Positions 3,886-63,355 of a stretch of 64,000 nt of DNA are shown here, in pieces; within the stretch, counting starts at the first letter, position 1, and the number at the start of each line of letters is the position of its first letter. The stretch comes from Coriobacteriia bacterium (GTDB taxonomy: Bacteria; Actinomycetota; Coriobacteriia; Coriobacteriales; UMGS124): the NCBI GenBank assembly GCA_963930185.1, contig CAWVLT010000044.1, positions 45,403 to 109,402 of the forward strand, given 5' to 3'. The notes below the pieces were generated by a model that saw only the letters and a list, made by a program, of their open reading frames with translations, was not told the DNA's origin and did no database searches. A program made the position numbers and the translations under genes.

Positions 3886-3903
3886 GTGTCCTCCTCTGGG
3901 CAT

Positions 3904-3924
3904 CTGTTAGGAATCACCTAACAG
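3904..3924. promoter_or_regulatory. candidate LysR box (T-N11-A inside an 8-bp inverted repeat)
   Basis: CTGTTAGG-AATCA-CCTAACAG in the divergent LysR / SdhA-like intergenic region. A TATAAT hexamer follows at 3930-3935. Confidence 0.5.
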
Positions 3925-7483: not shown

Positions 7484-8551
7484 ATGAAAACCATCGCATC
7501 TCGTCCCATCGCCGCTTTCGTCGCCTCGGTTGCGCTTGCCGGAACCTGTCTGGCCGCACCTGGCCTGGCCCTGGCCGACGAGCCTGCCGCGGCGCCGCTG
7601 CCGTCCGCCTCGGCTTCTGCCGACCAAACCGCAGGTGTCACTTGCACTTGCGCTGGTGTCCAGATCACCGTCCCCGAGGACTTCGACGTCGTCGAGCTCG
7701 GCAGCATGCTGCTTGCTAGTAACGCTGACGGGACCATCGTCGCGACCATAGTCCCCTCGGGCGCCGAGGATGCCGTGCCGGCCGCGCCGGAGGAGTGGGG
7801 TGCGTACTTCCTCCCCATTGTCGAGTCTACCGCCGAGGACATGGGTGGCGAGTATGCGGACGGCGGCGTGTACACGCTGGCCGACGGAACCAAGTCGTAT
7901 GTCTACTCGATTGCCTACGAACAGGACGGCATCCAGGCCATTCTTGTCCAGTGCTTCATCCCCATGGCCGATGGTTCGTTCGTCATGGTTCAGATTGCCT
8001 GCGATTCTAGCGATGCCGCCCTCGTGGAGCTTGCCGATGACATTTCTGAGACCATCGTCCTGGCGAGCGACGATACCGTCCCGTCAAGCGACGACACCTC
8101 GACGGCCGCCTCTGCTGCTGGTGACATCCAGGTGGTGCAGGCTGGCGGCATCGAGTTCGACCTGCCCGCGGGCTATGTTCCCGACGCCAGCTCGACCGAG
8201 GCGGAGCCTGCCTGGACGAGCGCTGATGGGACGGTCTACGTGAGCCTGATGCCCGGCCTGCTTGACGAGTATTCGACCGTGGGCGACGAGGCTTTGGATC
8301 TGCTCGCGACGATGGTTGTCAGCGGGCTCGGCGGCTCTGCCGAGAGCTCGACCGTGCTTTCTGGTGACGTCGACGTCCACGCGTACGTGTTCACCTTCTC
8401 GATGGAGGGCGAGGCGGTCGCCGGCATCCTGGGCATGGTGGTTCTCCCCGACGACACGGTGACGGGTGTGCTGGCCTTGACCCCCATGGAGAACGCTCCC
8501 GAAAATGACGCCGAGGTGACCGCTCTGTTCGAGAGCATCCGCCTGGCGTAG
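7484..8551 (+). CDS. secreted acidic protein of unknown function
   Basis: Sec-type leader MKTIASRPIAAFVASVALAGTCLAAPGLALA followed by DEP. The Asp/Glu/Ala-rich body appears to consist of two similar halves. RBS GAAGGGGA before ATG 7484. Confidence 0.6.
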   Translation: MKTIASRPIAAFVASVALAGTCLAAPGLALADEPAAAPLPSASASADQTAGVTCTCAGVQITVPEDFDVVELGSMLLASNADGTIVATIVPSGAEDAVPAAPEEWGAYFLPIVESTAEDMGGEYADGGVYTLADGTKSYVYSIAYEQDGIQAILVQCFIPMADGSFVMVQIACDSSDAALVELADDISETIVLASDDTVPSSDDTSTAASAAGDIQVVQAGGIEFDLPAGYVPDASSTEAEPAWTSADGTVYVSLMPGLLDEYSTVGDEALDLLATMVVSGLGGSAESSTVLSGDVDVHAYVFTFSMEGEAVAGILGMVVLPDDTVTGVLALTPMENAPENDAEVTALFESIRLA

Positions 8552-8858
8552 CCGATCAAGAGCCCAACTCGCTCGCGGGACGTCCTTGATGGGGGCGTCT
8601 AGGCCGGACACTGCGTTGGACTGACGTGCGATTGGCGACGAGAGCACGGCTGTAAGCTTACGGAGCACGGGGCCGTTCGGGATTATCCGGGCGGTCCCTT
8701 CTCATTGCAGGGTGAGCCTACGCATCCTGATCGGGTGGCACGCGGGACGTTGGGCCCTTTGGCCGGAAGACCCTGGTTGAGCGCCGCGCCTGGCGCTATT
8801 CTTATGCTGGTCTTATAAAAAGAATCGGATGGGGCCGAGGCAACACGGGGGCTGACGC

Positions 8859-9384: not shown

Positions 9385-10437
9385 ATGAAAGGATGGGCGG
9401 TCGTGGGGAGGAAACTGGCGTCGGTTCAATACGTGCACGATGTGTGGCCAATCGAGGGTGCGGACTCCATTGAAGCCATAGGCGTCCTAGGCTGGACGTG
9501 CGTTGCAAAGAAAGGCGAGTTTGCGGTGGGGGACAGCTGCGTCTATTTCGAGATAGACTCGTTTCTCCCAATTGACGATCATTTCGAGTTCCTCCGCGCA
9601 AGCAGCTATAAGAATAGCGAGCTGTTGGGCGAGGGTTTTCGCCTCAAGACCCAGAAGTTCCGCGGGCAGATCTCCCAAGGGCTGGCGCTGCCCTTGAGTA
9701 TTCTCCCAGAGGGGAATTATGTGCTTGGCCAGGACGTGACCGAGCTTTTGGGCGTTCGCAAGTGGGAGATAGCTGAGTTCGCGAGCAGCAACGGAACGAT
9801 CATCGGGGGCCTTCCGGTGGGCCTGCCAAAGACGGAGGAATCGCGTGTGCAGGCAGAGCCCGGTTTGATCGACGAGTTTGTCGGCGTGCCCTATTACATC
9901 ACAACCAAAATGGATGGCACAAGCGTCAGCATGTTTCTAATTGACGGACGCTTTGGGGTGTGCGGTCATAATTACGAGTACGCCGATGACGGCAGGTGCT
10001 CATTTTGGGATTATGCGCGAAAGCATGACATAGAGAGCAAGATGCGCGATCTTGGCATTGGCGATGTCGTTGTGCAGGGCGAGTTCTGTGCCGCCGGCAT
10101 TCAAAAGAACCCGCTGAAGCTTACCAGGCCCGAATGGTATATATTCACCGTCTATGACCCACTTACTCGCAAGCATTTCTCCCTGGACAGAATGACAAGA
10201 CTTTGCGACAGACTTTGCCTGCAGGTTGTTCCCGTTGAAGAGCGGGGTGACGACCTGCCCTACAAGGACATAACGGCGCTGCTCGAGAGGGCTCGTGGTA
10301 ACTACCCAAGCGGAACGACGAAGGAGGGGATCGTGATCAGGCCGCTTGTTCCTGTGTACTCAAAGACGCTGGGCGGGCCTTTGTCTATGAAAGTGATCAA
10401 TAACGACTATCTGCTCAAGAAGGCAAAGCGCGAATAG
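9385..10437 (+). CDS. ATP-dependent RNA ligase, Rnl5 / DraRnl (DRB0094) family
   Basis: N-terminal OB-like module RKLASVQYVHDVWPIEGADSIEAIGVLGWTCVAKKGEFAVGDSCVYFEIDSFLP. Nucleotidyltransferase motifs: I TKMDGTS, III VVVQGEF, IV KEGIVIRP, V LSMKVINNDYLLK. The start could instead be GTG 9403. Confidence 0.75.
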   Translation: MKGWAVVGRKLASVQYVHDVWPIEGADSIEAIGVLGWTCVAKKGEFAVGDSCVYFEIDSFLPIDDHFEFLRASSYKNSELLGEGFRLKTQKFRGQISQGLALPLSILPEGNYVLGQDVTELLGVRKWEIAEFASSNGTIIGGLPVGLPKTEESRVQAEPGLIDEFVGVPYYITTKMDGTSVSMFLIDGRFGVCGHNYEYADDGRCSFWDYARKHDIESKMRDLGIGDVVVQGEFCAAGIQKNPLKLTRPEWYIFTVYDPLTRKHFSLDRMTRLCDRLCLQVVPVEERGDDLPYKDITALLERARGNYPSGTTKEGIVIRPLVPVYSKTLGGPLSMKVINNDYLLKKAKRE

Positions 10438-43353: not shown

Positions 43354-44952
43354 ATGGACAACGATAGCTTGGCAAACAGGCAGATGACACGCAGGGGCTT
43401 TGCCGGAGCGGCGCTCGGTGGTCTGGTGGCGCTGGGTGCGTCGGTGGCGAGCTCGCGCGCTGCGCTCGCTGACGAGGCGGGGTCGAGCGCTTCTATGGAT
43501 GCCCTGTCCTCTGGTGCAGACGCTCTGGCTGGCTCGGACGCGTCTGGTGAGGGCGGCGCTGCGGGTCAGGGGGCGTCCGGCTCGGGCGTCGTCGGCGGTA
43601 CCGACGCCGTGACCGCGCTCAACGAGGTGGCCTATCCCCAGCCGGTTGCCTCTGGAGATTACTACGATTACATCCAGGCGCTCGACGTTGATTCGTGGGG
43701 TGAGGAGCTCTTCTCGGCGATTGCCGCGTTCGCTGACAACCTTACGTGTTATGGCATCGGCCAGGGGATCGGTTCCCAGGACGACGCCGCCGGAGCGACC
43801 GGCCTCGCCAGCCCCGTGAACCAGTGCCTCTCGCCGGTGAGCGCCTATCTCGCGCTCGCCCTGCTCGCACAGGGGGCACGTGGCGAGACGCAGGCGCAGC
43901 TCTTCGACGTGCTTGGCGTGGGCGCATCCGACGCGGATGGTGCAGCCAGCGCGAGCTCCGCCACTGACGCCGCCGAAGGGCCGGCCCTGTCCGCCGCGAA
44001 CTTCGCAGGGACGTGCTCGCGGCTCATCCAGCTGCTTTGGGCTCAGAACACTCCCGAGGACGACTCGTGCCCGGGCATCCTGCAGGTCGCGAACTCCGTG
44101 TGGGCACGCGTCGACGTACCGATCGAGCAGACTTTCCTGGACGTGGCGACCAGGGACTTCACGGCCGAGTGCTATCGGGTCGACGAGGTGGGCCCCGCGG
44201 CCGGCTCGGCCATGGGCGAGTGGATTGGCGAGCACACGGGCGGCAACCTCTCGCCTCAGATCCAGCTCGACGCGCAGTGGATCATGAGCATCATCAACAC
44301 GGTGTGGTTCAAAGCCGGCTGGAGCGACGCGTTTGACGAGGCGAACACCGCGCCCGACGTTTTCCATGCGGCGTCTGGCGATGTGGAGTGCGACTTCATG
44401 TCGCGCATCCGCACGTGCTCGGTGGTGCGGGGTACGGGGTACCAACTTGCGTCGCTTCCCCTAGCCACGGGCGCGAGCCTTCTGCTGATGCTTCCCGACG
44501 AGGGCATCGACCCCCGCGCGTTCCTTGGGCGCGCCGGCGGTATCTCGCGGCTCTGGGGGCAGATCGGCACATCATCGGAGCTTGTGGAGGCCACGTTCTA
44601 CGTGCCCAAGGTCTCGTTTTCCCGCACAACTCAGCTGGCCGACGTGCTGAAGCAGATGGGCGTCACTCTGGCGTTTGGAGAGGCCGGGACCGATGGCACC
44701 GGTGCAGACCTCTCGGGCATCTCCGAGGCAGCCGGCCACGTGAGCGCGGTCGAGCAGGGCACGCGCTTCTCGATGAACGAACATGGCGTGGAGGCGAGCG
44801 CGTATACCATGGTGGCCATAGCCATGGCGGCCCTGCCGCAGGATCTCGAGCAGGTTGAGCTGCGCTTCGATCACCCGTTTGCCTTCCGCCTGGTCGACCG
44901 CAACGGCATCGTGCTGTTCGACGGCGTGGTGGACGACCCGACGGCCGAGTAG
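43354..44952 (+). CDS. serpin-family protease inhibitor with Tat-type leader
   Basis: Leader NRQMTRRGFAGAALGGLVALGASVASSRAALA, then a Ser/Gly/Ala-rich linker and a serpin body. Hinge/RCL region NEHGVEASAYTMVAIAMAALPQ and C-terminal FDHPFAFRLVDRNGIVLFDGVVDDP. RBS AGGAGGAGG. Confidence 0.85.
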   Translation: MDNDSLANRQMTRRGFAGAALGGLVALGASVASSRAALADEAGSSASMDALSSGADALAGSDASGEGGAAGQGASGSGVVGGTDAVTALNEVAYPQPVASGDYYDYIQALDVDSWGEELFSAIAAFADNLTCYGIGQGIGSQDDAAGATGLASPVNQCLSPVSAYLALALLAQGARGETQAQLFDVLGVGASDADGAASASSATDAAEGPALSAANFAGTCSRLIQLLWAQNTPEDDSCPGILQVANSVWARVDVPIEQTFLDVATRDFTAECYRVDEVGPAAGSAMGEWIGEHTGGNLSPQIQLDAQWIMSIINTVWFKAGWSDAFDEANTAPDVFHAASGDVECDFMSRIRTCSVVRGTGYQLASLPLATGASLLLMLPDEGIDPRAFLGRAGGISRLWGQIGTSSELVEATFYVPKVSFSRTTQLADVLKQMGVTLAFGEAGTDGTGADLSGISEAAGHVSAVEQGTRFSMNEHGVEASAYTMVAIAMAALPQDLEQVELRFDHPFAFRLVDRNGIVLFDGVVDDPTAE

Positions 44953-50426: not shown

Positions 50427-52088
50427 ATGAGCCACAACGCATACTCCAATCCCATAACCGACCTCCAGTCCCGTCGCTCGTTCATCAAGAACGCTGGGTT
50501 TGCGGGCGCAGCGTCTGTCGGAGCGCTTGCCACTGTTGGATCCGCCCTGGCGGACGAGCCTGCCGCCGGCTCGTCTTCTTCTGGTGGCGCTTCCAGCGAT
50601 ATTGCGTGGGACGAGGAGTTTGACTTCGTTATCATCGGCGCTGGCATCGCCGGTGCTTCCGCTGCGGTGACCGTGGCGACCGAGGGCGACGGCGCCACCT
50701 GCCTGCTTGCCGAGAAGATGGAGACCCCCATGGGCAACACCCCCTACAGCGACGGCAGCGTGCTGTTTGGATACGATGCCGACGCGTTCTACGCGTACAT
50801 GAAGGAGATGGCGGGCGAGCACGCCACTACGCCCGATGACGTGCTGCGCGTTTACTCCGATGCGGCCTGCCAACTCAAGGAATGGATCTTCGACGATCTC
50901 GGCGCCGACTGGGAGACTTCTGGTACCTCCGAGCCCACCACGGCTGAGGACTTCGCCGACAATGCTTCTACCGAGTATCCAGAGTACGAGCACAGCTACT
51001 CGGTGGGCAAGATCCGCATCGGCAAGGGCGAGGGTGCTCCCGAGGATGGCCCCAAGCATATAATCCAGTTCCTCAACGGCCTTATCGAGCAGCACGCTGA
51101 CGTCATTGACTTCCGTTGCGACTTCCCCATGACCGAGCTCATCCGCAACTGGGAGACCGGTCGCGTGGAGGGCGCGGTCATCGGCGGTAAGAACATCAAG
51201 GCCAACAAGGGCGTCATCATGTGCTGCGGCGGATTTGAGACAGATCCTGTCATGATGGAGAACTACCTAGGCGCGGGCTCGGCCATCCCGGGCGCCGGCG
51301 TTGGCAACACCGGAGATGGTCACAGGGCGTGCATGAAGATCGGTGCCGACTTCTGGCACATGGAGCATGTGGCTGGCTTCTGGATGGTTGGCCGCGATCT
51401 GGAGAACACCAAGTCCGCCAACCTGCCTACCGGCAAGTCGGGCAAGAAGTACGGCATCACCGTGGGCGTCAGCGGCAGGCGCTACTACATGGACGTTGAC
51501 TCGTTCCGCGAGGCACTGAACACCGAATATCTTGGCGATATCCGTCTGAGCGTGGGTTCGCGTCACGGCCATGCCAATCTCGGCGGAGACTGGCCGCATG
51601 CCCAGCAGCCGCGCAAGGCGTGGTTTATCTTTGACCAAGCAGGGTTGGAGGCTGGGGCCATCTCGCCCGACTATTCCACCGACCCTGTTGCCGATGGTCT
51701 GGCCTACAGCGCCGATACCATCGAGGCGCTGGCCGAGATGATCGACGTCCCGACTGACGAGCTTGTCTCCACCGTGGAGGTGTGGAACGGCTTCTGCGCC
51801 GATGGCCACGACGCGGCGTTCTTCCGTCCGGCTGACACACTTACGCCCATCTCCACCCCGCCGTTCTACGCGCAGCTGTGCGCGCCGGCGTTCCTCAACA
51901 CCGACGGCGGTCCCGTGCGCAACGCAAAGGGCGAGATCCTCGACCCCGACGGCAACCCCATTCCCGGCCTGTACTCCGCAGGCGAATTTGGCTCCATCTG
52001 GTGCGGCGGCTACAATGGTGGCGGCAACCTGACCGAGGGCCTGGTCTTTGGTCGTATCGCCGTCCAGAGCGCCCTGGCCCAGGCATAA
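50427..52088 (+). CDS. Tat-signal FAD-dependent reductase (FAD_binding_2)
   Basis: Leader ...DLQSRRSFIKNAGFAGAASVGALATVGSALA; FDFVIIGAGIAGASAA; C-terminal IPGLYSAGEFGS. Confidence 0.85.
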   Translation: MSHNAYSNPITDLQSRRSFIKNAGFAGAASVGALATVGSALADEPAAGSSSSGGASSDIAWDEEFDFVIIGAGIAGASAAVTVATEGDGATCLLAEKMETPMGNTPYSDGSVLFGYDADAFYAYMKEMAGEHATTPDDVLRVYSDAACQLKEWIFDDLGADWETSGTSEPTTAEDFADNASTEYPEYEHSYSVGKIRIGKGEGAPEDGPKHIIQFLNGLIEQHADVIDFRCDFPMTELIRNWETGRVEGAVIGGKNIKANKGVIMCCGGFETDPVMMENYLGAGSAIPGAGVGNTGDGHRACMKIGADFWHMEHVAGFWMVGRDLENTKSANLPTGKSGKKYGITVGVSGRRYYMDVDSFREALNTEYLGDIRLSVGSRHGHANLGGDWPHAQQPRKAWFIFDQAGLEAGAISPDYSTDPVADGLAYSADTIEALAEMIDVPTDELVSTVEVWNGFCADGHDAAFFRPADTLTPISTPPFYAQLCAPAFLNTDGGPVRNAKGEILDPDGNPIPGLYSAGEFGSIWCGGYNGGGNLTEGLVFGRIAVQSALAQA

Positions 52089-52206
52089 GAGACGCCTACC
52101 TGCGCGGTTGAGGCCGCGCGGCGACGATGCCGACGTGGGCACAGGTGGTGCATGCGAGCACATGGCACAGTGACCTAGCCGCAGTCGTTTACGGTAGCTA
52201 TCGGGA

Positions 52207-52245
52207 CGCCTCGCGCCGGCTTTCGGGCTGGTGCGAGGCGCTTTT
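52207..52245 (+). terminator. intrinsic terminator after the reductase gene
   Basis: CGCCTCGC ... GCGAGGCG stem followed by CTTTTG. Confidence 0.6.
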
Positions 52246-52281
52246 GTGAATGGGTGATGTGCGACGCCGCCGCTCGATCGG

Positions 52282-53871
52282 CTAGCGAGGAGGCTCCCTC
52301 ATCAGGTCGATGAGTTCCTGCTTGGAGTGAATGTCCATCTTGGCGTAGAGAGCCCGCATGTATCCGCGCACGGTGTTTTGCGAGAGCGAGAACTCGCGGG
52401 CGATGTACGCTGCCGTGCGCCCCTCGGCGAGCAGCAGGGCAACCTCGGCCTCGCGGGCCGTGAGACCAAAGGCGTCTCGTAGGTGATGTAGGCGGGCGTC
52501 CTGGTGGGATGCCGTCTCTCGCGGGAAAATGCCGTCGGGCGATGTCGGGTCTTTCTCATCGTTGACGTCGGCGCTTGACGAGGCGCCGGGCCCAGATGCG
52601 TCGGGCGTGCTGGTTCCTGACCGCATCGGGCAGCCCTGCGCCGCCTGCCGTGGCATCGTGGGGAGCACGTTGATGCCGGCGAACAGGGGCCTGAGCCTAG
52701 GTATGTCGCTCGATAGCACAAGCGCCGTGCTGCCGATGAGCATGAAGAGCAGAAGCGCGATGAGCACGGTGCTGCCCGTGGTCTCTCCCTGGGCGAACCG
52801 CAGTACGAGCAGTCTGCCAAACGAGCGAAATGACAAGTGCAAAAACCACACGGCCGCCAAGGCGAAGAAGACCGACCCTTTGCGGTGCCGGCCGAAATCG
52901 ATCACCGACACCCACATGAACGCGACGCGATAGAGGTTGACGACGGCGATGATGGTGGCGCCGATCAGAGTTGCGGCTTCGTTGAATGTGGCAAGTAGAA
53001 GGATGCTGAGCGCAAGCGCGACGAGTATGGCCCACCAGATCGTTGACATGCGGTATCGCTTGCCTCGGGCTAGCACGAGCCATATGGTGAGGACCGACAG
53101 CGCGATGAGCGTGACGAACTGGGTTGCCTGCAGCCCGGCTCCGATGTGGATGGACGTGCCGAACGGAAACCCGCGCGACACTCCGATGACGAAGCTCGAT
53201 AGCGCCACGCCCACGAGCAGGCGCACGAGCGAAGAGCGGGGCTCGTCGCGATAGGCATCATCCTCTGGCTCGGGGATTGCCTGGGAGGGGACGGGTACGC
53301 CTGTCCGGGATTCGAGGATCTTCGCGGAGCGGAGGAGCATCATGAACGCGACGACGGGCAGGAACATGCTTGCGAGCAGGGCGATGTTGCTGGGAACGAG
53401 CCCCATGGGGACGCCGAGGATTGCCGAGAGCGCAAGCGAGACAAAGCCATAGAAGAACGCCTCGCGCGCGGCCATGCGCATGTAGACGTGCATCCACATG
53501 CCGCCAACCCATGCTAGCCCCGTGCCCGAGCAGATGGCCGCCGCAAGCATGAGGCCCAGGTCGGGGTAGCTTTCCTGTAGGAAGAAGAGAAACGTCCCCA
53601 GCGTCATGACGCCGACCGAGACCCACCCGAGCGCCCTTTGGAACTTGAGGGTGAACAGGCCTGCCAGAACGATCCCCACGAGAACGATGATGTAGGCGCT
53701 GCGCGACAGGTCGATCATGACGGTGGACATGCCTGCGTCCACCCACACGTAGCGCGCATAGGATACGCACTGCAGCCACAGCAGCAATATGCCGGTGCCC
53801 AGAAAGGACATGGCAAAGCGGCCAGGACATATTTTCTCGAGCGTCTTTCGCGCGCACTGCATGGGCATCAT
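52282..53871 (-). CDS. polytopic membrane LuxR-type regulator
   Basis: Hydrophobic body followed by FGLTAREAEVALLLAEGRTAAYIAREFSLSQNTVRGYMRALYAKMDIHSKQEL. The start is ambiguous (ATG 53871, 53868, 53862 or TTG 53886). Confidence 0.8.
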   Translation of the reverse strand: MMPMQCARKTLEKICPGRFAMSFLGTGILLLWLQCVSYARYVWVDAGMSTVMIDLSRSAYIIVLVGIVLAGLFTLKFQRALGWVSVGVMTLGTFLFFLQESYPDLGLMLAAAICSGTGLAWVGGMWMHVYMRMAAREAFFYGFVSLALSAILGVPMGLVPSNIALLASMFLPVVAFMMLLRSAKILESRTGVPVPSQAIPEPEDDAYRDEPRSSLVRLLVGVALSSFVIGVSRGFPFGTSIHIGAGLQATQFVTLIALSVLTIWLVLARGKRYRMSTIWWAILVALALSILLLATFNEAATLIGATIIAVVNLYRVAFMWVSVIDFGRHRKGSVFFALAAVWFLHLSFRSFGRLLVLRFAQGETTGSTVLIALLLFMLIGSTALVLSSDIPRLRPLFAGINVLPTMPRQAAQGCPMRSGTSTPDASGPGASSSADVNDEKDPTSPDGIFPRETASHQDARLHHLRDAFGLTAREAEVALLLAEGRTAAYIAREFSLSQNTVRGYMRALYAKMDIHSKQELIDLMREPPR

Positions 53872-54242
53872 CGTCTCTGCTCGCAACCGCCTCGATGCTT
53901 AACAGTAACCATCATATACCTGATTGGTTGGGCTGCAAAAGCGATGGTACACCTAGGTTGTTGAGGCTGGCGCGGTTTGCCCGGGCTTTGCCTCTGGGGT
54001 TTGGCGCATACGCATTTGGCGGGGTCAGGCGATTCGGGGGTGCTGGCCTTCTTGCAAATTCAATGGGCCGGGCGGGGCGGTATCTTCGTTTGCTTATAAC
54101 AGCAAGCGGGGAGTATCTGGCAAACAGCCCTATGAGCTGTAGGTAGCTAATGGGGCGCTCGGAAGACCAAATTGATCTTGCCGAGCGCCTCATGGTAGCG
54201 TCCCTTAATTAGCAAAAGCACCACTGATGATGCATAGATCAC

Positions 54243-55841
54243 CTATGCGTTGGCGGCTATATCCTCAGCGGCGGTTTGGCCTGCAACCCAGCTAGTTGCC
54301 ATGCACATGGCATTGCAGGATCCTCCAACGTTGTAGTACGGTGCGGCAAAGACGCTGCCGTTATCAGAGGAGCCGATGTAAAGGCCGGGGATTGGCTTGA
54401 GCTCGGCGTTTACAGCACGGCACGAGTTGTCGGTTCGTACTCCGCCCATAGTGTTGAGGCCACCGACCTGGTACTGAATGGCATAGTAGGGGCCCTCGTC
54501 AAGGGCGATAAGAAATTCCTTCGGCAGATTGAGGTCGCTGTCATAGCCGTCGGCACAGAAGCCGTTGTATCGCTCGATGGTGGAGGCAAGGTTCGGCAGT
54601 CCGGCGATTTCTGCGAGCTCCTCTGGAGTCTCGGCCTTCCATGCCCAGCCCTGCTCGATTGCCGCGTCGATGTCCTCTTGCATCCTTGGGCAGGGGTTGT
54701 CGAGTGTAAGGGGACCGGGAATCCAATATTCAGGACGGCCAACGCGGTCGAAAGCGGAGTGCTCGAGAAGGGTGTTGACCATCTTCTGGTCGGCAATTGC
54801 GTAGTAATAGCCGAGACGCATCTCGGCTGCCCCGGCTATGGTAAGAGGTGACTTGGCCATGTCGTATTCGTTAATGAACCTGTCGCCGTTTTGGTCGACG
54901 TGTAGAGTCCCGTAGACATCGAAGGCGAGGGCCTGCGAACGTTTGTCACTCTGCATATAGTTCTCGAAGACTCCCTCGCACTTTTCATTAAACCCGGCGT
55001 TGTTGGCAAGGGTGCTCATGCAGAAATTGGTTTCCATGATGCCGCCTGCCGCAAGTGTCATCTTGATGCCCGCGCCGTCATTCACGGCATAACTGTAACG
55101 GCCAAGCTTGATTTGGTCACCAAATGCGCTTCGCATCATCTCGTCGTTGTCCATGAAGCCGCCGCAGGCAAGAATTACGGCCTTGGCACGGTACTCGACT
55201 TGACCGTCGGGGCCGTCAGCGTAGAGGCCGACGACTCGGCCGTTCTCAACTATGAGTTCCTTTGCTTCGGTGTTGTAGTCAAACTGCACGCCCTTATCGA
55301 TGAGGGCAGATTCAACGAGACCCAGCTTGTTTTCTGTGCTGTAGGTGTGAACAGAAAGAAAGCCAATTCCGTACAGGTCTGAGGATGCAACTGAAATCTC
55401 ACAACCAAGGTCAGCCCATGTGTTTATCACGTCGGTGGAGGCTGCGAGGCACTTGCGTACGAGCACGGAGTTGACCGTTCCCTTTGCGAAGTCCATCATT
55501 GCGGCGTAGACGGTGTCGAGAGGGCAATCAATTCCCAATTCCTTCTGGACGTTGGTGTCCGCTGCTGTTGTTCCGCGCATCCAGTTGGTGTTTGAATTAA
55601 GACAGCTAGCCGACTTCTCGACGACTACGACATTTAACCCAGCTTCGGCGGCTGTATATGCGCCCCAAAGGCCAGATCCCGCACCTACGACAATAACGTC
55701 CGCCTCGGTTGTTTTGATGGGTTCCCAGATCGTTTCCTCTTCTGCTGCTTGGGCTTGGTTGAAGGCTGCCAGTCCCATGGCTGTCAGGCCCGTTATTGCA
55801 AGACCACTTGCGATCATGCTGCGCCTCGTAATCGAACTCAT
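54243..55841 (-). CDS. Tat-signal FAD-dependent reductase (FAD_binding_2)
   Basis: Leader MSSITRRSMIASGLAITGLTAMGLAAFNQAQA; DVIVVGAGSGLWGAYTAAEAG; IPGLYIGSSDNGS. RBS AAAGGAG. Confidence 0.85.
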   Translation of the reverse strand: MSSITRRSMIASGLAITGLTAMGLAAFNQAQAAEEETIWEPIKTTEADVIVVGAGSGLWGAYTAAEAGLNVVVVEKSASCLNSNTNWMRGTTAADTNVQKELGIDCPLDTVYAAMMDFAKGTVNSVLVRKCLAASTDVINTWADLGCEISVASSDLYGIGFLSVHTYSTENKLGLVESALIDKGVQFDYNTEAKELIVENGRVVGLYADGPDGQVEYRAKAVILACGGFMDNDEMMRSAFGDQIKLGRYSYAVNDGAGIKMTLAAGGIMETNFCMSTLANNAGFNEKCEGVFENYMQSDKRSQALAFDVYGTLHVDQNGDRFINEYDMAKSPLTIAGAAEMRLGYYYAIADQKMVNTLLEHSAFDRVGRPEYWIPGPLTLDNPCPRMQEDIDAAIEQGWAWKAETPEELAEIAGLPNLASTIERYNGFCADGYDSDLNLPKEFLIALDEGPYYAIQYQVGGLNTMGGVRTDNSCRAVNAELKPIPGLYIGSSDNGSVFAAPYYNVGGSCNAMCMATSWVAGQTAAEDIAANA

Positions 55842-55968
55842 CGTTAGCTCCTTTCCTTGGTAAGGCCAGTGTCAATCGTGATGCATGTCCCAAGGCTATG
55901 GGGAACCGTCCGATTTGCGATAGCCCTACAGAGGGGAAGGAAGTCGATACGCATATCCCCAATATAGG

Positions 55969-57459
55969 TTAACCAACATCTGAGCTGGATTTATTCCCAG
56001 GGGTTTCACTATCAGATGGTTCGTATACATGCTCGACCAAGCTGATTAGCTCTTGTTGGGAATGTACGCCAAGCGCAACATAGAGTGATTTCTTGTATGT
56101 TCGTATGGTATTTTCTGCCAGAGACAGCTCCTTGGCGATGTAGGGAACATCCCTTCCCGTAGCGAGCAAGCAGAGGATCTCAGATTGTCGAGGCGAAAGT
56201 TTACGTCGTTCTGCCAATAAGAAGCAGCCCATTTGGATTGTGTCGGCCGATGCCATTTCGCGTTCCCGCTTTGTTTGGAGCTCCTGACGAATAATGATGA
56301 AAAGGGGTATGGTGAGGAGGTAAACAAGCAGGAGGGCCACAGAGATCGCCCTTACCCCCTCGGGGATTGAACTAAGGAAATCATTGCTGAGCAGCGGAAT
56401 AAATAACGGTCTTGTGAGATAGGCGATCCCCGCGAAAATGCCGTAGAGGATCTGGGGGTTAATCTGGTATTTTCTGCTTTGTTCAACAGTAAGGACAATC
56501 ATCATGATAGACATTACTGCTCCGCATGTTTCCCCCATGAGCACAAATACCCAGCTGCTTGCAGTTTCGTGAATAAACGAGGCGAATACGAATATCGTTG
56601 CGAGAACTGGCCATGAGAAAACGTATAGCCGGGGGATCGTGATATCTCGATCAAGGCCAAACCAAATGAATGCAACGATTGCGGTGCCTGCTATTCTGGC
56701 GACTTGCGACAAGACGATGCGAAACGATTCGGTGAGTATGTTCGCGTCCCAGTTTAGATCGATTGTCGAATCGACAAAGAAGAACACGATCACGCATAGA
56801 AAAGGCACTACAAGGCCTTTGCCTGCAGCCATGCAGCTAGAGTATGCAGACTCTCTTCCACCCGTGGTGCTTGGGCTCCTCTTCAGGTTAACGTGCGTCA
56901 AGACTATTACAAGCGGTACTAGGAGAAAGGCAATGAGAGGCAATAGACTGCGAGACGGCAGGAATGCGAGACAACAGATGGTCATACCGGCAAGAACGTT
57001 GGCGATAAGCAGGAGCTTTTTCATGTCATGTATTGACTGCTTTGCGATAACTTCCATCCAAAGGATGAACAGCATGCCTTCGCCGAGTCCTATGCATGCG
57101 ACCGCGAAGTAGTAGGCAATTTCGGCATGAATCCCATATTTGGAGACAAGAGACATGATGAGTCCAGCAATAAGTGACACAAAACAAAGAGACGCCTGAT
57201 TGGGTAGATTTCTCGTGCACACAAAGGATAGAAATCCCGCGCCAATCATCGTGATAGAGCAGGTAAATTGCTCGATCATCCTACAGGACGATCTCAGATC
57301 GTCTCCGAGTTCTAGGCAGTTTAATGCGAAGGGGCCCCATGTGAGCAAGGATCCTATTGCCATAAAGAGGGCGGCACCAATGACATATAGGATGTCATTG
57401 ACCAGCTTCTGTTTTGGATCAACACCGGCTTGATTGGCTTTTACGGTATTATCATTCAT
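55969..57459 (-). CDS. polytopic membrane LuxR-type regulator
   Basis: Hydrophobic body followed by RKLSPRQSEILCLLATGRDVPYIAKELSLAENTIRTYKKSLYVALGVHSQQEL. Confidence 0.85.
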   Translation of the reverse strand: MNDNTVKANQAGVDPKQKLVNDILYVIGAALFMAIGSLLTWGPFALNCLELGDDLRSSCRMIEQFTCSITMIGAGFLSFVCTRNLPNQASLCFVSLIAGLIMSLVSKYGIHAEIAYYFAVACIGLGEGMLFILWMEVIAKQSIHDMKKLLLIANVLAGMTICCLAFLPSRSLLPLIAFLLVPLVIVLTHVNLKRSPSTTGGRESAYSSCMAAGKGLVVPFLCVIVFFFVDSTIDLNWDANILTESFRIVLSQVARIAGTAIVAFIWFGLDRDITIPRLYVFSWPVLATIFVFASFIHETASSWVFVLMGETCGAVMSIMMIVLTVEQSRKYQINPQILYGIFAGIAYLTRPLFIPLLSNDFLSSIPEGVRAISVALLLVYLLTIPLFIIIRQELQTKREREMASADTIQMGCFLLAERRKLSPRQSEILCLLATGRDVPYIAKELSLAENTIRTYKKSLYVALGVHSQQELISLVEHVYEPSDSETPGNKSSSDVG

Positions 57460-57922
57460 AGGAGATCCCCGTCTAAATGCTTAGCCTGCCTAGAACTGTA
57501 GACTCTATTAATGATATATCGATTAGGTAGCTTGGGCTTCAAGAGATAGCGTGATATCCGCGGGTAGTTGGTTATTGGAAAGAAGAGGATAGTGGTTGAT
57601 GCGCTAGCACGCCATGCGGGCATCGATTGCGCGGACGAGCTTGTCATGGTCTGACGTGCTGACGCGCTTGCAGGGACGTAGGTCCATGTCTTTGTGAGGG
57701 CTCGCCTGACTGAACATGATGCATGTCAGTACGGCATGCGAGCGAGTTGCATTTTCTATCATTGTCCCTGCATTTAATTTCCTGTGCCGGGCAAAAGACT
57801 TTTGGTATTTACCACATCATAACGACATTATGGATACAGCCCTGATGGCATTTATAGTTACGAGTAAGGAAATGGGTTCCTACCGGGGATCCAAGGCATA
57901 CCGAATGGGGAGGGAGAGGGAT

Positions 57923-59782
57923 ATGGCGAATGCCACAAGTGTTCCGAGGCGTACGTTTATCCAGGGGGCAGGCATGACTGGAACCGCTGTTGCTCTTGGG
58001 ATGGCCATGGCCGGTGCGTCGGCTGGCCTTGCGGATGAACTCGGCGAACAGCCCGTTGGTCAGCCTGACGAGTATGATATCCAAGTACATGAGGCCGATG
58101 TCGTGATTGTGGGTGGCGGCATCGCCGGAACCACGGCAGCGCGCCGCATTATGGCACAGGGGCTAAGCGTCGCGATTGTTGACAAGGGACCGTGGGCCCA
58201 CTCGGGCACGTCAGGTATCAACTGGGGCCACAATGCTGAGAGCAACGAGTGGGCGGAGGGTGATGGCTCCAACACCTTTGGTGCTTGGATTTACATGCTT
58301 GAAGGCATGCTCAACCAGCCCAATGGCCTTGCTATGTGCCAGGCGGTTCATGCCGGTCGTCCGTGTGCAACTTTTGAGCAAATGGGCTGCATCCTCGAGC
58401 GTGGCAAGGACGGCCATACGGCGGCGGGCAATGCGCCGGCCGATCTTGTTGTGGATAATGGCACGTTCAACCGCTACTTCTGCTTGGATCTCGAGCGCAG
58501 GGGTGCCGATATCTATGATCGCACGATGGTTCTCGATCTGCTCCAGGATGCTGAGGGGCGTGCAGCTGGTGTGGTTGCGGTGAGCCTGGTCGATGGTAGC
58601 GCACATGTGTTCAGGGGTAAGGCGATTGTCTTCGCTACGGGCAGCTACTGCTGGGTTACCGGATACAACGGCATGAAGCCGCATACCATCGCCGGCCCCG
58701 AGAACACTGGTGATGGCCTTGCCATTCTCATGCGCAAGGGACTTGCGATGCGTGACATGGAAGAGCTGCCCATCGACTTTGTGCAGTGGAACCCTCTCGG
58801 CATCCGTCAGGGTATGGGTGCGCAGGGTGCTTCGACAATCAACTGGAAGTTCATGTACGACAAAGATCTCAATCCGCTGGTGCCCGAGGGTGTCGAGAGT
58901 GTGTCGAACGGACAGCTTGCCCGCTACTACTACCGTGCTCAGCTCGAAGGCCGAGGAACAGAGAACGGTGGCGTGTACGTAGCTACCCATGACCCGGACT
59001 CCGATGACCGCTACTACCGTCGTTGCAAGGAGAACGAGCGGATTTACTTGGGTTACGAGCTACCCGATTATACTGAGGTCGTTGCTGAGCAGTGGGAGGT
59101 CGCCGGCCATCCGTTTGACTACTCGCCTACGGCGGAGACTGCCATCCCCAGCCTGTTCTACGCTGCGTCTGGCCAGGGTGTTTGGGCGGGCTGCGGATTT
59201 TTCGGTGCGTTTGGCTCTGGGTTTATGGCGGGCGAGGGGGCTGCTGCCCGTGCTCTCGAGACTGAGGATGCCCCCGCAATCGACTGGGCTGCCGCGAATG
59301 CTGCCCTTGCTGAGGCGTATGCCCTGCTCGAGTCTGAGCCGGACGATCCACTTCGTTCCACCGTGGTGTTCCGCGACATCCAGAATGCTTACTGGTCCGG
59401 GCTAAGCCCTCTGCGCAACGCCGATGGCATCAAGGGGTCGATTGCCGAGCTTGACCGCATCGAAAAAGAAGAGCTTCCCAGGATGTACGTCCCCCAGAAG
59501 TCGCGCCAGTATAACACCGACTGGCATCGTGCGCTCGAGGCTCGCAACATGCTTATGTGTGCCCGCGCCACCGGTGAGGCTGCCCTGCTGCGCGAGGAGT
59601 GCCGAGGTGCACACGTGCGTGAGGACTTCCCCATTGAGGATAACGAGAACTTCCTCAAGAGCACCAAAGTTTCGTATTCCAACGGGGAGTGGAGCGCAAG
59701 TCTCGAAGAGCTGGACGGCACGATCATGTCTGTCGAGGACATGAAGCCGATCATGCCCAAGCTCGATCTGTTTGAGCAGTAA
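57923..59782 (+). CDS. Tat-signal SdhA/FrdA-like FAD flavoprotein subunit (second copy)
   Basis: Leader MANATSVPRRTFIQGAGMTGTAVALGMAMAGASAGLA; DVVIVGGGIAGTTAARR; DKGPWAHSGTSGINW; C-terminal EECRGAHVREDFPIEDNENF. ATG 57923 has a GGGGAGGGAGAGGG RBS. Confidence 0.85.
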   Translation: MANATSVPRRTFIQGAGMTGTAVALGMAMAGASAGLADELGEQPVGQPDEYDIQVHEADVVIVGGGIAGTTAARRIMAQGLSVAIVDKGPWAHSGTSGINWGHNAESNEWAEGDGSNTFGAWIYMLEGMLNQPNGLAMCQAVHAGRPCATFEQMGCILERGKDGHTAAGNAPADLVVDNGTFNRYFCLDLERRGADIYDRTMVLDLLQDAEGRAAGVVAVSLVDGSAHVFRGKAIVFATGSYCWVTGYNGMKPHTIAGPENTGDGLAILMRKGLAMRDMEELPIDFVQWNPLGIRQGMGAQGASTINWKFMYDKDLNPLVPEGVESVSNGQLARYYYRAQLEGRGTENGGVYVATHDPDSDDRYYRRCKENERIYLGYELPDYTEVVAEQWEVAGHPFDYSPTAETAIPSLFYAASGQGVWAGCGFFGAFGSGFMAGEGAAARALETEDAPAIDWAAANAALAEAYALLESEPDDPLRSTVVFRDIQNAYWSGLSPLRNADGIKGSIAELDRIEKEELPRMYVPQKSRQYNTDWHRALEARNMLMCARATGEAALLREECRGAHVREDFPIEDNENFLKSTKVSYSNGEWSASLEELDGTIMSVEDMKPIMPKLDLFEQ

Positions 59783-59830
59783 GGGCGCGGTAGAAGGTTT
59801 GACCGATCGAGCAGGAAGCGAGGGATTTCA

Positions 59831-60565
59831 ATGGCGACTATCACCGCCAAAATATTTAGGTATGATCCAAGCGTGGACGAGGAACCGCACTACTCCACAC
59901 ATGAGGTCGAGTGGATTGACGATGGCACGGGCATCATGACCGCGTTGCAGGTTCTTCACGCCATCAACTATGACGAAGAAGCTTTTGGCTATGATCACAA
60001 CTGCTCGTCGGGTTTGTGCGGGCGCTGCAGCATGCTGATCGACGGCAAGCCTGGTCTTGCCTGCTGGACTCCGCTTGAGCCTGGCGAGCACACGTTCGAG
60101 CCGTTGCCGGGCTTCCCGGTCATTAAAGACCTCGTAGTTGATCGCAGCAAGGCACGCCAGCAGTTCGTGAACGTTGATACGACCATCCACACCGTCGATC
60201 CCATTGTTACGCTGCCCGATATTGACTACGAGCTGTATTGGGAGACGCTTGAGCGCCTGAACATGTGTCGCGAGTGCATGCAGTGCTATGCTGTGTGCCC
60301 CGTGCTCAAGGATGGAAATAACACGCGATTCGTTGGCCCGGGTGCCATGGGGCAGATTGCCCAGCGCTACTTCGACACCGAGGATCAGAGCGATCGACTC
60401 GGACAGGCTGTCTTTTCCGGCTTGTGGGATTGCACGCTATGCGGCGAGTGCACGGCCGTATGCCCGTCCGGCATCAAGCATGTCGAACTATTCCAGAAGA
60501 TGCAAGAAGATGCGCGCGAGCGCGGGCTTGTGCCTTCCGAAGACGTGGAGAAAGATTTCGCATAG
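59831..60565 (+). CDS. SdhB/FrdB-like iron-sulfur subunit (second copy)
   Basis: CSSGLCGRCSMLIDGKPGLAC, CRECMQCYAVCP, CTLCGECTAVCP. Colinear with 5882-6592. Confidence 0.85.
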   Translation: MATITAKIFRYDPSVDEEPHYSTHEVEWIDDGTGIMTALQVLHAINYDEEAFGYDHNCSSGLCGRCSMLIDGKPGLACWTPLEPGEHTFEPLPGFPVIKDLVVDRSKARQQFVNVDTTIHTVDPIVTLPDIDYELYWETLERLNMCRECMQCYAVCPVLKDGNNTRFVGPGAMGQIAQRYFDTEDQSDRLGQAVFSGLWDCTLCGECTAVCPSGIKHVELFQKMQEDARERGLVPSEDVEKDFA

Positions 60566-60765
60566 TATCTGTCGCGAATTCAGACCTATTTCGCGATGTT
60601 GCTAAATGGTCGGGGCTTATAAATGCGGGAGAGGCGTGCTTGCGTCTCTTCCGCATATGTTTAACACGGGTGACAGGGTGTCTCGCCGTTCTTCATATTG
60701 CGATTGACGTGATCGTGCTTACAGCAATAGCATGTACCCCAAAGGGATTTGGGGAGGGGATTGTC

Positions 60766-61686
60766 GTGCGTGTCGAGGTGTTGCGTGAGTTCATAGAATT
60801 TGCCAAGTATCAAAATATCAGCGCGGCTGCAAAGAAGCTCTTTATTACACAACCGGCATTGAGCAACCACATTGCAAGTATCGAAAAAGAACTGGGACTA
60901 GAGCTCGTCCGTCATGGAAAGACGATGGAGCTCACGGCTGCTGGACGGGCGTTTTTCGAGGGCTGCTGCGAGGTCGTGGGGGCATACGACTCTATGATTG
61001 AAAGGGTTCGCGTGCTTGCAGACCAAGGTAATCCCGGAACGCTCGTTATTAAAGCAGACACGAGCGGAACAAGCGGCTCTTGTCGGCTCTTGGATCTAAT
61101 AAGCCAGTTCAAACGGCTGCATCCTTCGATAACGGTGACCTTTAACAACTCTAGTAAGAACAGTGTCGCGGCTGACCTTGCGTCAGGTGAACTCGATTGT
61201 GCTCAGGTCTACAACTACATTGATGGGCGTGCTGGAGCAGAGCTAATAGGGGGAGAGTGTGACCAGCTTGATTCGATCGTTATCGACCAGGCCCCCATTA
61301 CCGTTGTGGCAAATAAGGATCATCCCTTGATGTCAAAGAAGAGCATTTCTTTTGGAGACATCCTCCGCTTTCCATATGCCATGCCGGCGGGGGCCGCTTT
61401 CATAGAGTGCGAGGCTTCTATTAGGCAACTGTATCACAAGCATGGGACGGAGTTAAAAAATATCCACTACAAGGTCGTTGATTCGATAGCCGACCTCGTT
61501 GCAATGGAAACGCATGGGGATGAGCTGCTCATAATGGGGGCGTCACCTGCTCTTCCGAGTGCGATGGCATGTCGTTCGTTTGATCCCCAGGAGTATCAGG
61601 ACTTCTGCCTGATTTACCGTAAGGACAGTGACAACACCGTGCTGAAGGAGTTCATCGAGTTTGTTCGGTCGGACGGGCGCCCCTGA
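60766..61686 (+). CDS. LysR-family transcriptional regulator
   Basis: GTG 60766 after GGGGAGGGGA. HTH VLREFIEFAKYQNISAAAKKLFITQPALSNHIASIEKELGLELVRH. The ORF-track start 60424 overlaps the Fe-S gene. Confidence 0.85.
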   Translation: MRVEVLREFIEFAKYQNISAAAKKLFITQPALSNHIASIEKELGLELVRHGKTMELTAAGRAFFEGCCEVVGAYDSMIERVRVLADQGNPGTLVIKADTSGTSGSCRLLDLISQFKRLHPSITVTFNNSSKNSVAADLASGELDCAQVYNYIDGRAGAELIGGECDQLDSIVIDQAPITVVANKDHPLMSKKSISFGDILRFPYAMPAGAAFIECEASIRQLYHKHGTELKNIHYKVVDSIADLVAMETHGDELLIMGASPALPSAMACRSFDPQEYQDFCLIYRKDSDNTVLKEFIEFVRSDGRP

Positions 61687-61804
61687 GCGGCCGAAGGGCT
61701 GGTGAGCTTCAGCACTTGTGGCTACAAAATTCCAACAGGCTCTATTTGTGTCTATGTAGGGTATGGCGAGGTACTGCAAGCGTGCGTGGGCCTTCTCTGA
61801 TGCG

Positions 61805-63355
61805 TCAGCGGTGGCGGTTGGGTCTTTTCGGATTCAGCGGAGCATCTGTTCTTGGAGAACTTCCGTCCTTCTTCTCGATAAGCTGGATCAGCTCGCTTTT
61901 GCTATGAATGCCAAGCTTAGTGTAGATGCTCTTTGTGTGTGAGCGGACAGTGTTCAATGAAACTGTGAGTCTTTCGCCGATCTGCGGCAGAGTATATCCT
62001 CGACAGAGCAGCTTAACTACTTCGGTTTCGCGTCCAGACAATCCGAATGAGGCCGCCAACCAAGCAAAGTCGTCCGTATCGTGCTTTTCGGATTGAGTCA
62101 CGAATTCGTCTTTGTGAGCTGTACTTTTCTGCGGTCTTTGTAATACAAGAAAGAACGTATAGCCGATTAGAAGTATTGCCATGCAGAACGAGAGTGCTGC
62201 AGCAAACGTTCTGCTGGCACCGTGGCTCATGACAGGGAATAGTAGGTGGAGTATACCTGACGGTATATTTGTCTGCATGAAGAGGACGGCTCCAATTCCA
62301 AATGTCATTGTTTTCGGTAGGGATTCGCGATAGGCGAGTCCGGAAACAAAAGTCCAGGCGAATATCATGAGGCAGTCCTGTGTGGCGTTCATAAAGCTGA
62401 CGGAAGTGGGCAGATCGATGAAGCAGAATGACGAGTAGCCCAGCAGGCCGCAGAAAATCAGGCACGAATAGAGGCCCCAAAGCTGGTCGGGGTTATCGTG
62501 ACTAAGGGGAATCGCCCATAAAAAGTTAACCACGAACACGAGAAGAAACACGGGCAATCTCAGCGCGTTGGACGTGAAGAGCCGAGAGGCCTCCTGTGAA
62601 GGGGCAACGACCACTTCTGTTGCTGCGCACGCGATGCTGCATAACAGAAGTAAACAAAGAACACCCCATGGAGGACTTGTTAGGTGTTTGGCCGTTATGC
62701 GTTTCCAGTTGCCATCGTAGATCGTGCACTCTGTTGGAAGTAGCAGTAGTCCGCCGCAAATTATCGGCGAAGCTACGGCTATGCCTCCCATTACAACAGG
62801 AGACGCTCCTTCAAGAACGGTGATTAGTATCCCGTATAGCGCAAATGCTCCTGTTATGGAAAGGGAGGATAGGCTTGGGCTGATGGATGAGGTCCGTGTT
62901 CCCCATCCAAGCAACAGCATTGCTGCCCCAAATCCATGAACTACCCGTCCTAATACGAAGAGCGGGTCAGCGGGGTCATCAATGCCCATGATGCTGATGC
63001 AACCGGCAAGCATGGAAACCATGGCAACGATAACGGCGTACCGCATGATTTTGGACGACAGGGGTTTTAGGGCGACGAGGATAATCACGAGGATTATGGT
63101 GGCAAGCTGGGCTAGACGTGAGCATGTGAATGCATCTGCGGCGCTACTTGCAAATGAGTTACCAAAGATGCTCCAGGCGCTTAGCCTGAACGCGAGAATA
63201 CCGAGAGAGGTTATGCAGCAGAGAAGCAGGCGATTGCTTTTCTGCGAACTGATGCCTGTGCTTGCGGGTAAATGCCTGTGCACAATTCCCACTCCCCCAT
63301 GACTGGCAAGCGCCTGCAGACAGAACTGTTCGGATTTTAGCACCACATCATCCAT
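61805..63355 (-). CDS. polytopic membrane LuxR-type regulator
   Basis: Hydrophobic body followed by FGLSGRETEVVKLLCRGYTLPQIGERLTVSLNTVRSHTKSIYTKLGIHSKSEL. The start codon is not well supported by an RBS. Confidence 0.8.
   Translation of the reverse strand: MDDVVLKSEQFCLQALASHGGVGIVHRHLPASTGISSQKSNRLLLCCITSLGILAFRLSAWSIFGNSFASSAADAFTCSRLAQLATIILVIILVALKPLSSKIMRYAVIVAMVSMLAGCISIMGIDDPADPLFVLGRVVHGFGAAMLLLGWGTRTSSISPSLSSLSITGAFALYGILITVLEGASPVVMGGIAVASPIICGGLLLLPTECTIYDGNWKRITAKHLTSPPWGVLCLLLLCSIACAATEVVVAPSQEASRLFTSNALRLPVFLLVFVVNFLWAIPLSHDNPDQLWGLYSCLIFCGLLGYSSFCFIDLPTSVSFMNATQDCLMIFAWTFVSGLAYRESLPKTMTFGIGAVLFMQTNIPSGILHLLFPVMSHGASRTFAAALSFCMAILLIGYTFFLVLQRPQKSTAHKDEFVTQSEKHDTDDFAWLAASFGLSGRETEVVKLLCRGYTLPQIGERLTVSLNTVRSHTKSIYTKLGIHSKSELIQLIEKKDGSSPRTDAPLNPKRPNRHR

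Follow-up and report, generated by a model that had tools for sequence, protein, structure and literature searches.

The window analyzed here is a stretch of 64,000 nucleotides from a gut Coriobacteriia genome (assembly GCA_963930185.1, G000; positions 45403-109402 of contig CAWVLT010000044.1, C44; 3.1 Mb in 96 contigs, 88.6% complete). Our subject is a two-gene module within it, A2B2, which codes for a flavoprotein and an iron-sulfur protein related to the SdhAB and FrdAB subunits of complex II. The module lies between two regulators of different families, namely a membrane LuxR-type gene divergent from A2 and a LysR-type gene, LysR2, downstream of B2 (Table 1). All the open reading frames (ORFs) named in an earlier reading made from the letters alone, hereinafter the sequence-only reading, are present as described.

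Table 1. Genes and other features of the window, followed by the contigs that carry homologs of A2B2 (aa, amino acids; Tat, twin-arginine translocation; percentages give the identity of the A subunit to A2)
Feature or locus	Position	Strand	Description	Domains or neighboring genes
A2	57923-59782	+	619 aa, Tat-leader flavoprotein, SdhA/FrdA fold	FAD_binding_2 + Succ_DH_flav_C
B2	59831-60565	+	244 aa SdhB-like Fe-S subunit, leaderless, 12 Cys	Fer2_3 + Fer4_8
LysR2	60766-61686	+	LysR-type regulator, putative cognate of A2B2	HTH_1 + LysR_substrate
Membrane LuxR	55969-57459	-	LuxR-type regulator with 10 hydrophobic segments (~10 transmembrane)	GerE
Single-subunit reductase	54243-55841	-	exported FAD_binding_2 reductase	assigned by Pfam
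LuxR-A2 intergenic region	57460-57922	.	463 bp	
Hairpin after B2	60623-60656	+	15-bp stem, weak T-tail	
A1	4032-5831	+	first-copy Tat-leader SdhA-like flavoprotein	same domains as A2
B1	5882-6592	+	first-copy SdhB-like Fe-S subunit	same domains as B2
LysR1	2980-3903	-	LysR regulator divergent from A1	assigned by Pfam
L075			79%; A-B followed, 132 nt on, by 29 initial codons of a co-directional LysR gene	874 bp upstream free of LuxR fragments
L017/L018			74%; A-B-LysR	choline-binding/NlpC protein gene upstream
L076			70%; contig ends within B	AAA-ATPase-like gene upstream
L019			69%; LysR divergent upstream	GerE gene convergent downstream, divergent from a molybdopterin enzyme
L020			67%; A-B-LysR	among three SdhAB pairs
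L021-L023			61%; LysR divergent upstream	toxin-antitoxin genes downstream
L024			52% and 48%; two modules, a divergent LysR in each	
L026			46%; A-B-LysR	
L025 (Raoultibacter phocaeensis)			44%; no LysR	GAF histidine kinase + response regulator

A2 is read from the ATG at 57923, which stands behind a strong purine-rich ribosome-binding site (GGGAGGGAGAGGG), and there is no need to invoke the longer in-frame ORF that runs from 57716. Its two Pfam domains are recovered with E-values of 1e-22 (FAD_binding_2) and 2.5e-25 (Succ_DH_flav_C), and B2 starts 48 nt past its stop codon. A second pair of the same architecture, A1B1, lies near the start of the window with a spacer of 50 nt, taking the ATG at 5882 (behind an AGGAG site) as the start of B1. 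Both flavoproteins have twin-arginine leaders (VPRRTFIQG at residues 7-15 of A2; LPRREFLQG in A1), and both iron-sulfur subunits have 12 cysteines in a common pattern, CX4CX2CX11-13C followed by two full CxxCxxCxxxC motifs. The pairwise comparison that the sequence-only reading had called for gives 28% identity for the flavoproteins (E 4e-51) and 37% for the iron-sulfur subunits (E 8e-49), so that its view of A2B2 as a colinear paralog of A1B1 holds, as does its observation that the first copy is flanked by a divergent LysR gene. An ortholog of A1B1 in another genome (G010, locus L073; 84% and 78% identical) keeps a divergent LysR gene, whose product shares 48% identity with LysR1. The assembly has no SdhB-like genes besides B1 and B2, which leaves a third Succ_DH_flav_C protein, encoded on contig C48, without a partner of that kind. 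The 128-bp spacer between LysR1 and A1 contains a perfect 8-bp inverted repeat, CTGTTAGG-N5-CCTAACAG, at 3904-3924. With its T-N11-A core and its position directly against the start codon of LysR1, this repeat is a good candidate for the LysR1 operator. On its other side, at the edge of the first module, LysR1 adjoins an IS200-like (Y1_Tnp) transposase gene at 2078-2821.

The membrane LuxR gene adjoins A2 at a distance of 463 bp, and on its other side the single-subunit reductase gene follows it co-directionally after 127 nt. Besides its own 99%-identical cluster, the LuxR protein has only three distant homologs (42, 36 and 35% identity) in a collection of 5.8 billion proteins. In each of the three corresponding loci (L032, L034 and L035) the LuxR gene is followed after 130-160 nt by a co-directional gene for a FAD_binding_2 reductase of ~540 aa, two of which resemble the reductase of the window (66% in L032 and 55% in L034), and none of the three has an SdhAB pair. 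Likewise, a divergent LuxR gene upstream of A is seen in 0 of the 9 modules orthologous to A2B2, and the sole nearby GerE gene among the A2-orthologous loci (in L019) is transcribed divergently from the gene of a molybdopterin enzyme. These associations indicate that the membrane LuxR protein belongs to the single-subunit reductase, as one half of the refutation set out in the sequence-only reading had foreseen, and that it is probably not a second regulator of A2B2. Among the curated NCBIfam models this reductase is matched best by that of the vinyl phenol reductase VprA (208.6 bits; cut-off 600), and on that score it is taken as a relative of VprA rather than as a member.

The LysR2 gene shows the opposite behavior. 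It lies 200 nt past B2, uses a GTG start with a ribosome-binding site of its own (GGGGAGGGG), and is recognized by both its Pfam domains with E-values of 1.7e-15 (HTH_1) and 1.2e-14 (LysR_substrate). Genomes of the same family contain no close ortholog of either A2 or the membrane LuxR, and the other species of the same genus lacks both SdhAB pairs; synteny was therefore read from metagenomic and NCBI contigs encoding A2 homologs. A LysR gene adjoins the A-B pair in all nine orthologous modules (46-79% identity in A), either co-directionally downstream (L075, L017/L018, L020 and L026) or divergently upstream (L019, L021-L023 and both modules of L024). In six of the nine this LysR is a relative of LysR2 at 34-72% identity: 72% in L075 (over the 29 aa available), 57% in L018, 51% in L020, 50% in L019, and 41% and 34% in L024 (the latter over a partial gene), against 26% for LysR1. 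In most loci the identity of the LysR roughly tracks that of A. The association thus outlasts both inversion of the regulator and full turnover of the surrounding genes, which is the signature of a functional pair, and A1B1 behaves alike in that its own divergent LysR is kept in the G010 ortholog. From this conservation we infer that LysR2 is a co-varying partner of A2B2 that would govern its expression; the possibility, allowed for by the sequence-only reading, that it belongs to an unrelated downstream operon did not come true. A further LuxR gene (61805-63355) and LysR2 are transcribed toward each other.

Two observations on the orthologous contigs may be added here. The three SdhAB-like pairs of L020 (4-9032) are packed into an 11-kb metagenomic contig, with LysR and MarR-type regulators between them. 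A gene of the Cys_Met_Meta_PP family, whose members are pyridoxal phosphate-dependent enzymes of sulfur amino-acid metabolism, adjoins the A-B-LysR array in two otherwise unrelated contexts (L017/L018:10534-11815 and L026:6500-7783), the former of which also carries an SBP_bac_3 binding-protein gene; it is at most a weak hint as to the substrate class.

As the LuxR homologs keep their reductase and the A2 orthologs keep their LysR, the region is best read as two separate modules with one regulator each, placed side by side. Nucleotide composition agrees with this map, in which the LuxR gene goes with the single-subunit reductase and LysR2 with A2B2. Against 0.65 for the whole genome, the G+C content forms a mosaic by module across 50427-63355: it is 0.63 for both the reductase gene at 50427 and the LuxR gene at 52282, 0.55 and 0.48 for the single-subunit reductase and its membrane LuxR, and 0.59, 0.57 and 0.51 for A2, B2 and LysR2, so that the modules 54243-57459 and 57923-61686 together span 0.48-0.59. 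In both of these modules, as in that of A1B1, G+C content is lower in the regulator than in the enzyme.

As to transcription, the 463-bp LuxR-A2 intergenic region must hold the A2 promoter. A hairpin downstream of B2 is the probable end of the A2B2 transcript: folding of 60566-60700 gives a z-score of -3.41, with 1 of 200 shuffles as good, and a scan for consensus terminators did not call it. Together with the start codon and ribosome-binding site of LysR2 itself, this hairpin suggests that A2B2 and LysR2 form two transcription units. Scans for sigma-70 and terminator consensus sequences returned no more matches than shuffled sequence, no T-N11-A dyads are present in 60566-60765, and a scan of the regions upstream of the A2 orthologs for perfect palindromes found nothing common to them. 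The intergenic spacer has no Rfam match that would point to a riboswitch or leader RNA, and its folding z-score of -0.49 shows no surplus of RNA structure. That the spacer is the relic of a divergent LysR or another gene was considered and rejected, as tblastn found no gene match. The only hit is a segment of 110 nt (57599-57708) that shares 72% DNA identity with positions 6946-7055 of contig C7, elsewhere in this genome.

Several observations weigh against the assignment of A2B2 to LysR2 alone. The LysR association is not universal, because the Raoultibacter locus L025 has a two-component system in this position, and in two of the loci where a LysR is adjacent it is only 26% (L021) or 28% (L026) identical to LysR2. 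A motif search of the regions upstream of A2 and its orthologs (window, L018, L019 and L020) found no shared operator, the best 16-mer scoring 33 where shuffles reach maxima of 32-36, and a scan for T-N11-A dyads in 57460-57922 gave a single 5-of-6 match, at 57783, in line with the chance rate (0.9 per kb). For a cytoplasmic LysR to sense what an exported enzyme acts on, the substrate or product would have to be taken up, and no transporter gene stands beside the A2B2 module in the window. RNA sequencing runs containing the locus were sought and none was found; the runs that do contain it are exclusively animal-gut DNA metagenomes. Finally, the divergent arrangement of the LuxR and A2 genes across a long spacer would physically permit action of the LuxR protein on A2, and the dadh gene of Eggerthella lenta is likewise flanked by a LuxR (DadR) and a LysR (DadS) gene (PMC9734109).

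The last two points are those that favor layered control, in which the LuxR protein, sensing outside the cell, and LysR2, sensing inside it, would both act on the A2 promoter. The sequence-only reading had entertained such control; its premise stands in that both regulator genes are present, but the synteny of the orthologs lends no support to the two governing one enzyme. With no LuxR beside A in any orthologous module and the LuxR homologs staying with a co-directional reductase, and given that Dong et al. suggest that DadS regulates other genes and point out that the other LuxR clusters are without LysR genes (PMC9734109), we regard this option as unlikely. It is just as improbable, in our estimate, that LysR2 is an accidental neighbor or regulates distant genes, with A2B2 being constitutive or controlled from elsewhere. 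LysR proteins often have regulons extending beyond their neighbors, no LysR box was found here, and LysR2 is seemingly transcribed separately, behind the hairpin; yet a chance neighbor does not account for an association that survives changes of orientation and context and co-varies in sequence across loci, nor for the retention of a LysR by the first pair in G010. Control of A2B2 by LysR2, presumably exerted at the promoter within the intergenic region, hence remains the reading that we favor.

In a wider survey of the order, SdhB-like genes were detected in 29 of the 401 genomes sampled. The immediate neighbors of 36 A-B pairs examined there include 12 TetR, four MarR and two LysR regulators, while a two-component kinase, a PucR-type protein and a membrane GerE protein are each seen once. 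The low LysR count was obtained with our own LysR hidden Markov model and is upheld by a Pfam scan, with the neighbors being mostly TetR or MarR. The partners of SdhAB pairs are thus overwhelmingly cytoplasmic one-component sensors. That different families of regulators (LysR, TetR, MarR, two-component and, once, membrane LuxR) stand beside homologous pairs implies that regulators have been exchanged in the history of the family; the module shuffling proposed in the sequence-only reading stands on this evolutionary scale and is unsupported beyond it.

We next consider the enzyme itself. The AlphaFold2 (AF2) model of A2 has a mean predicted local distance difference test (pLDDT) value of 86.5, with only the 48-residue leader disordered, and its top Foldseek matches are SdhA and FrdA chains, with template modeling (TM) scores of 0.70-0.79 (about 0.75 for the best PDB matches). 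The curated models draw a different line: A2 scores 157.5 bits against TIGR01812 (cut-off 567.3) and 94.3 bits against MFR_Fp_SdhA (NF042982; cut-off 1100), and all the 33 flavoprotein models listed are far below their cut-offs. B2 scores 50.7 bits against NF042952 (cut-off 600) and passes only one model, TIGR00384 (dhsB), a broad subfamily model, at 143.6 bits against 88.

The active site was examined in pairwise and 32-sequence-profile alignments to solved SdhA structures (1nek, 6lum, 7d6v, 3vr8 and 8b6g), at ~20% identity. The positions H242, T244, R286 (the proton donor), H354 and R399 are numbered as in E. coli SdhA. The HPTG motif that carries H242 and T244 reads WNPLG in A2 (i.e. N and L), R286 of the (L)A-x-R-D motif is N, H354 of H-Y-x-M-G-G is Q in EQWEVAG, and R399 of G-A-N-R-L-G is F in G-C-G-F-F-G. 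The replacements point in the same direction across all five templates, at that level of identity, and A1 also departs from HPTG, with YDFNS in the pairwise alignment to A2. In the A2 family, the column of the canonical FAD (flavin adenine dinucleotide)-linking His (R-S-H-T) always holds Gly, and a nearly invariant His precedes that column by two residues, in G-H-S-G-T-S-G. As all four dicarboxylate-binding and catalytic residues are replaced in these alignments, we conclude that A2 lacks the fumarate/succinate-binding residues and would not be a fumarate or succinate enzyme; its pocket looks more hydrophobic.

B2 retains all the ligands of the [2Fe-2S] and [4Fe-4S] clusters in an alignment to FrdB, and its third Cys motif, CTLCGECTAVCP, carries a fourth Cys at a position occupied by Val in FrdB and by Ile in SdhB. 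Both the ligands and the extra Cys are kept in all 50 of the family B proteins checked, and the clusters of B2 may accordingly be read as one [2Fe-2S] and two [4Fe-4S] rather than including a three-Cys [3Fe-4S]. This corresponds to the type E Cys pattern discussed for the Acidianus succinate:quinone reductase and for the Mfr of Wolinella and Campylobacter (PMC2680327). The complex predicted for A2 (110-688) with B2 scores 0.87 in each of three runs, where the best control scores 0.00. Of 80 solved complexes 55 attain that mark, as do 3 of 110 mismatched pairs; for a family with known complexes, such a score expresses likeness rather than proof of binding. It is very improbable that A2B2 is an ortholog of Mfr, or else a conventional succinate dehydrogenase or fumarate reductase, with its anchor gene elsewhere: the top sequence and fold matches are indeed SdhA/FrdA and SdhB/FrdB, and the Tat leader and extra Cys recall Mfr, but the substitutions of H242, R286, H354 and R399 by N, N, Q and F, scores far short of the cut-off for every NCBIfam flavoprotein model (94 against 1100 for MFR_Fp_SdhA, for one), and the failure to find a CCG-domain protein in the assembled genome speak against it.

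With regard to export, TatC is encoded in the genome. B2 begins directly with its Fer2_3 domain and, being leaderless, would have to travel with A2; it is thus a presumed Tat hitch-hiker, by analogy with Mfr, where a leaderless Fe-S subunit is co-exported with a Tat-leader flavoprotein (PMC2680327). No membrane-anchor gene is present at the A2B2 locus, where the next gene is LysR2, and neither an SdhE-type CCG protein (PF02754; positive controls matched) nor a NapC/NirT protein was found in the 88.6% complete assembly. A single cytochrome c3-like gene lies elsewhere, on contig C69. An alternative mode of attachment is suggested by the leaders of the A2 family: in 21 of the 32 flavoproteins aligned the leader ends in a lipobox Cys, 20 of these with a visible RR motif, and these 21 members are probably lipid-tethered Tat lipoproteins. 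A2 and its nearest relatives (P0009, P0012 and P0016) have no lipobox Cys, and their leaders end in an Ala-rich, cleavage-type sequence. In several relatives a lipoprotein of ~135 aa is encoded directly after B (L024:3520-3927 and 8199-8600; L045:601-999; L041:6733-7146), and it combines a signal peptide whose lipobox reads L-x-G-C with a conserved motif, C-x3/4-C-H. Such a protein could serve the reductase as a heme c carrier of small size, anchored by lipid; the genome under study (G000) has no homolog of it.

Taking these lines together, we consider it likely that A2B2 is a Tat-exported reductase of a substrate other than fumarate that is controlled by LysR2, with the membrane LuxR serving the single-subunit reductase. 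Under this proposal A2 and B2 would form a two-subunit flavin/iron-sulfur reductase that is assembled in the cytoplasm and exported in folded form via Tat, with B2 riding on the twin-arginine signal of A2. Outside the membrane, electrons would pass along the B2 chain of one [2Fe-2S] and two [4Fe-4S] clusters to the FAD of A2, and catalysis would run in the direction of substrate reduction. LysR2, cytoplasmic, encoded 200 nt downstream and probably transcribed from its own promoter, would govern expression of A2B2, and the membrane LuxR would be the sensor of a separate module and drive the single-subunit reductase, the two modules being mere neighbors in a mosaic reductase island. We further raise, as a tentative possibility that we would not put quite at even, a more general view: the A2B2 clade may be an undescribed class of exported, anchor-less complex-II derivatives, with the dicarboxylate site rebuilt (W, N, L, Q, F) for a non-dicarboxylate and probably hydrophobic substrate. 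Most of its members would be tethered by a Tat-lipoprotein signal instead of SdhC/D/E, take electrons from an outward-facing donor (in some relatives possibly the small CX3-4CH lipoprotein), and be switched on by cytoplasmic one-component regulators rather than by membrane LuxR proteins.

The genome has ~60 leader-bearing FAD_binding_2 genes and at least eight membrane LuxR (GerE) genes in the window, and is of the same reductase-rich type as those described for the Eggerthellaceae (PMC9734109; bioRxiv 10.1101/2022.12.26.521950). The window also encodes a serpin (43354-44952) and an RNA ligase (PHA02142 OB-fold; 9385-10437). Gut Coriobacteriia possess dozens of exported reductases that act on dietary, host and drug molecules, and the inducer and the substrate tend to match (Dong et al. 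2022, PMC9734109; Little et al., bioRxiv 10.1101/2022.12.26.521950), so that pairing each enzyme with its own regulator is a practical route to substrates. In packed reductase islands adjacency alone misassigns regulators, and ortholog synteny resolves the assignment. A2B2 in turn marks a two-subunit, complex-II-derived subclass with a putatively non-fumarate active site, no known anchor and cytoplasmic sensors; wiring of this kind implies an inducer that gets into the cell, and so reduces the range of substrates to be searched.

Among the characterized systems the closest is the methylmenaquinol:fumarate reductase MfrABE (SdhABE), found in Wolinella succinogenes and Campylobacter jejuni and classed as a non-classical complex II of type E (Juhnke et al. 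2009, PMC2680327). It shares with A2B2 an N-terminal extension of ~40-50 residues with a twin-arginine motif on the flavoprotein, a leaderless Fe-S subunit, hydrophilic subunits that face outward (as would those of A2B2), and a Cys pattern in B implying that a second [4Fe-4S] replaces the [3Fe-4S]. A2B2 differs in having no SdhE (CCG-domain) anchor in the locus or the assembled genome, in the replacement of the fumarate-binding and catalytic residues of A2, in the scores against the NCBIfam Mfr models (94 against 1100 for A and 51 against 600 for B), in its monoderm actinobacterial host and in its LysR neighbor; it fails membership of the Mfr group by its anchor, curated scores and substrate residues. 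The thiol:fumarate reductase of methanogens, TfrAB, provides the best NCBIfam match of both B2 and B1, to the N-terminal half of TfrB (149 bits against 385), and TfrA that of A1. Unlike TfrB, B2 lacks the C-terminal CCG half, and unlike the cytoplasmic TfrAB, A2B2 would be exported.

With classical complex II (E. coli SdhAB and FrdAB; PDB 1nek and 1kf6) A2B2 shares the fold (TM about 0.72-0.79), the FAD_binding_2 and Succ_DH_flav_C domains, the [2Fe-2S] and [4Fe-4S] ligands and the predicted A:B interface. It departs from these enzymes in its probable export, in that no membrane anchor was found, in the replacement of H242, R286, H354 and R399, in the Gly at the FAD-linking His position and in the four Cys of the third cluster motif of B2. 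With the respiratory-like exported flavin reductases of the Eggerthellaceae it has in common the genomic setting and the rule that each reductase has a single regulator (Dong et al. 2022, PMC9734109; Little et al., bioRxiv 10.1101/2022.12.26.521950). A literature search found no description of exported SdhAB-type pairs in that family. A2B2 is set apart from these reductases by its two-subunit constitution with an SdhB-type Fe-S partner and by a regulator that is a cytoplasmic LysR rather than a LuxR with 10-12 transmembrane segments. A2B2 is thus a two-subunit, complex-II-derived variant within the expansions of exported respiratory-like flavin reductases of gut Coriobacteriia.

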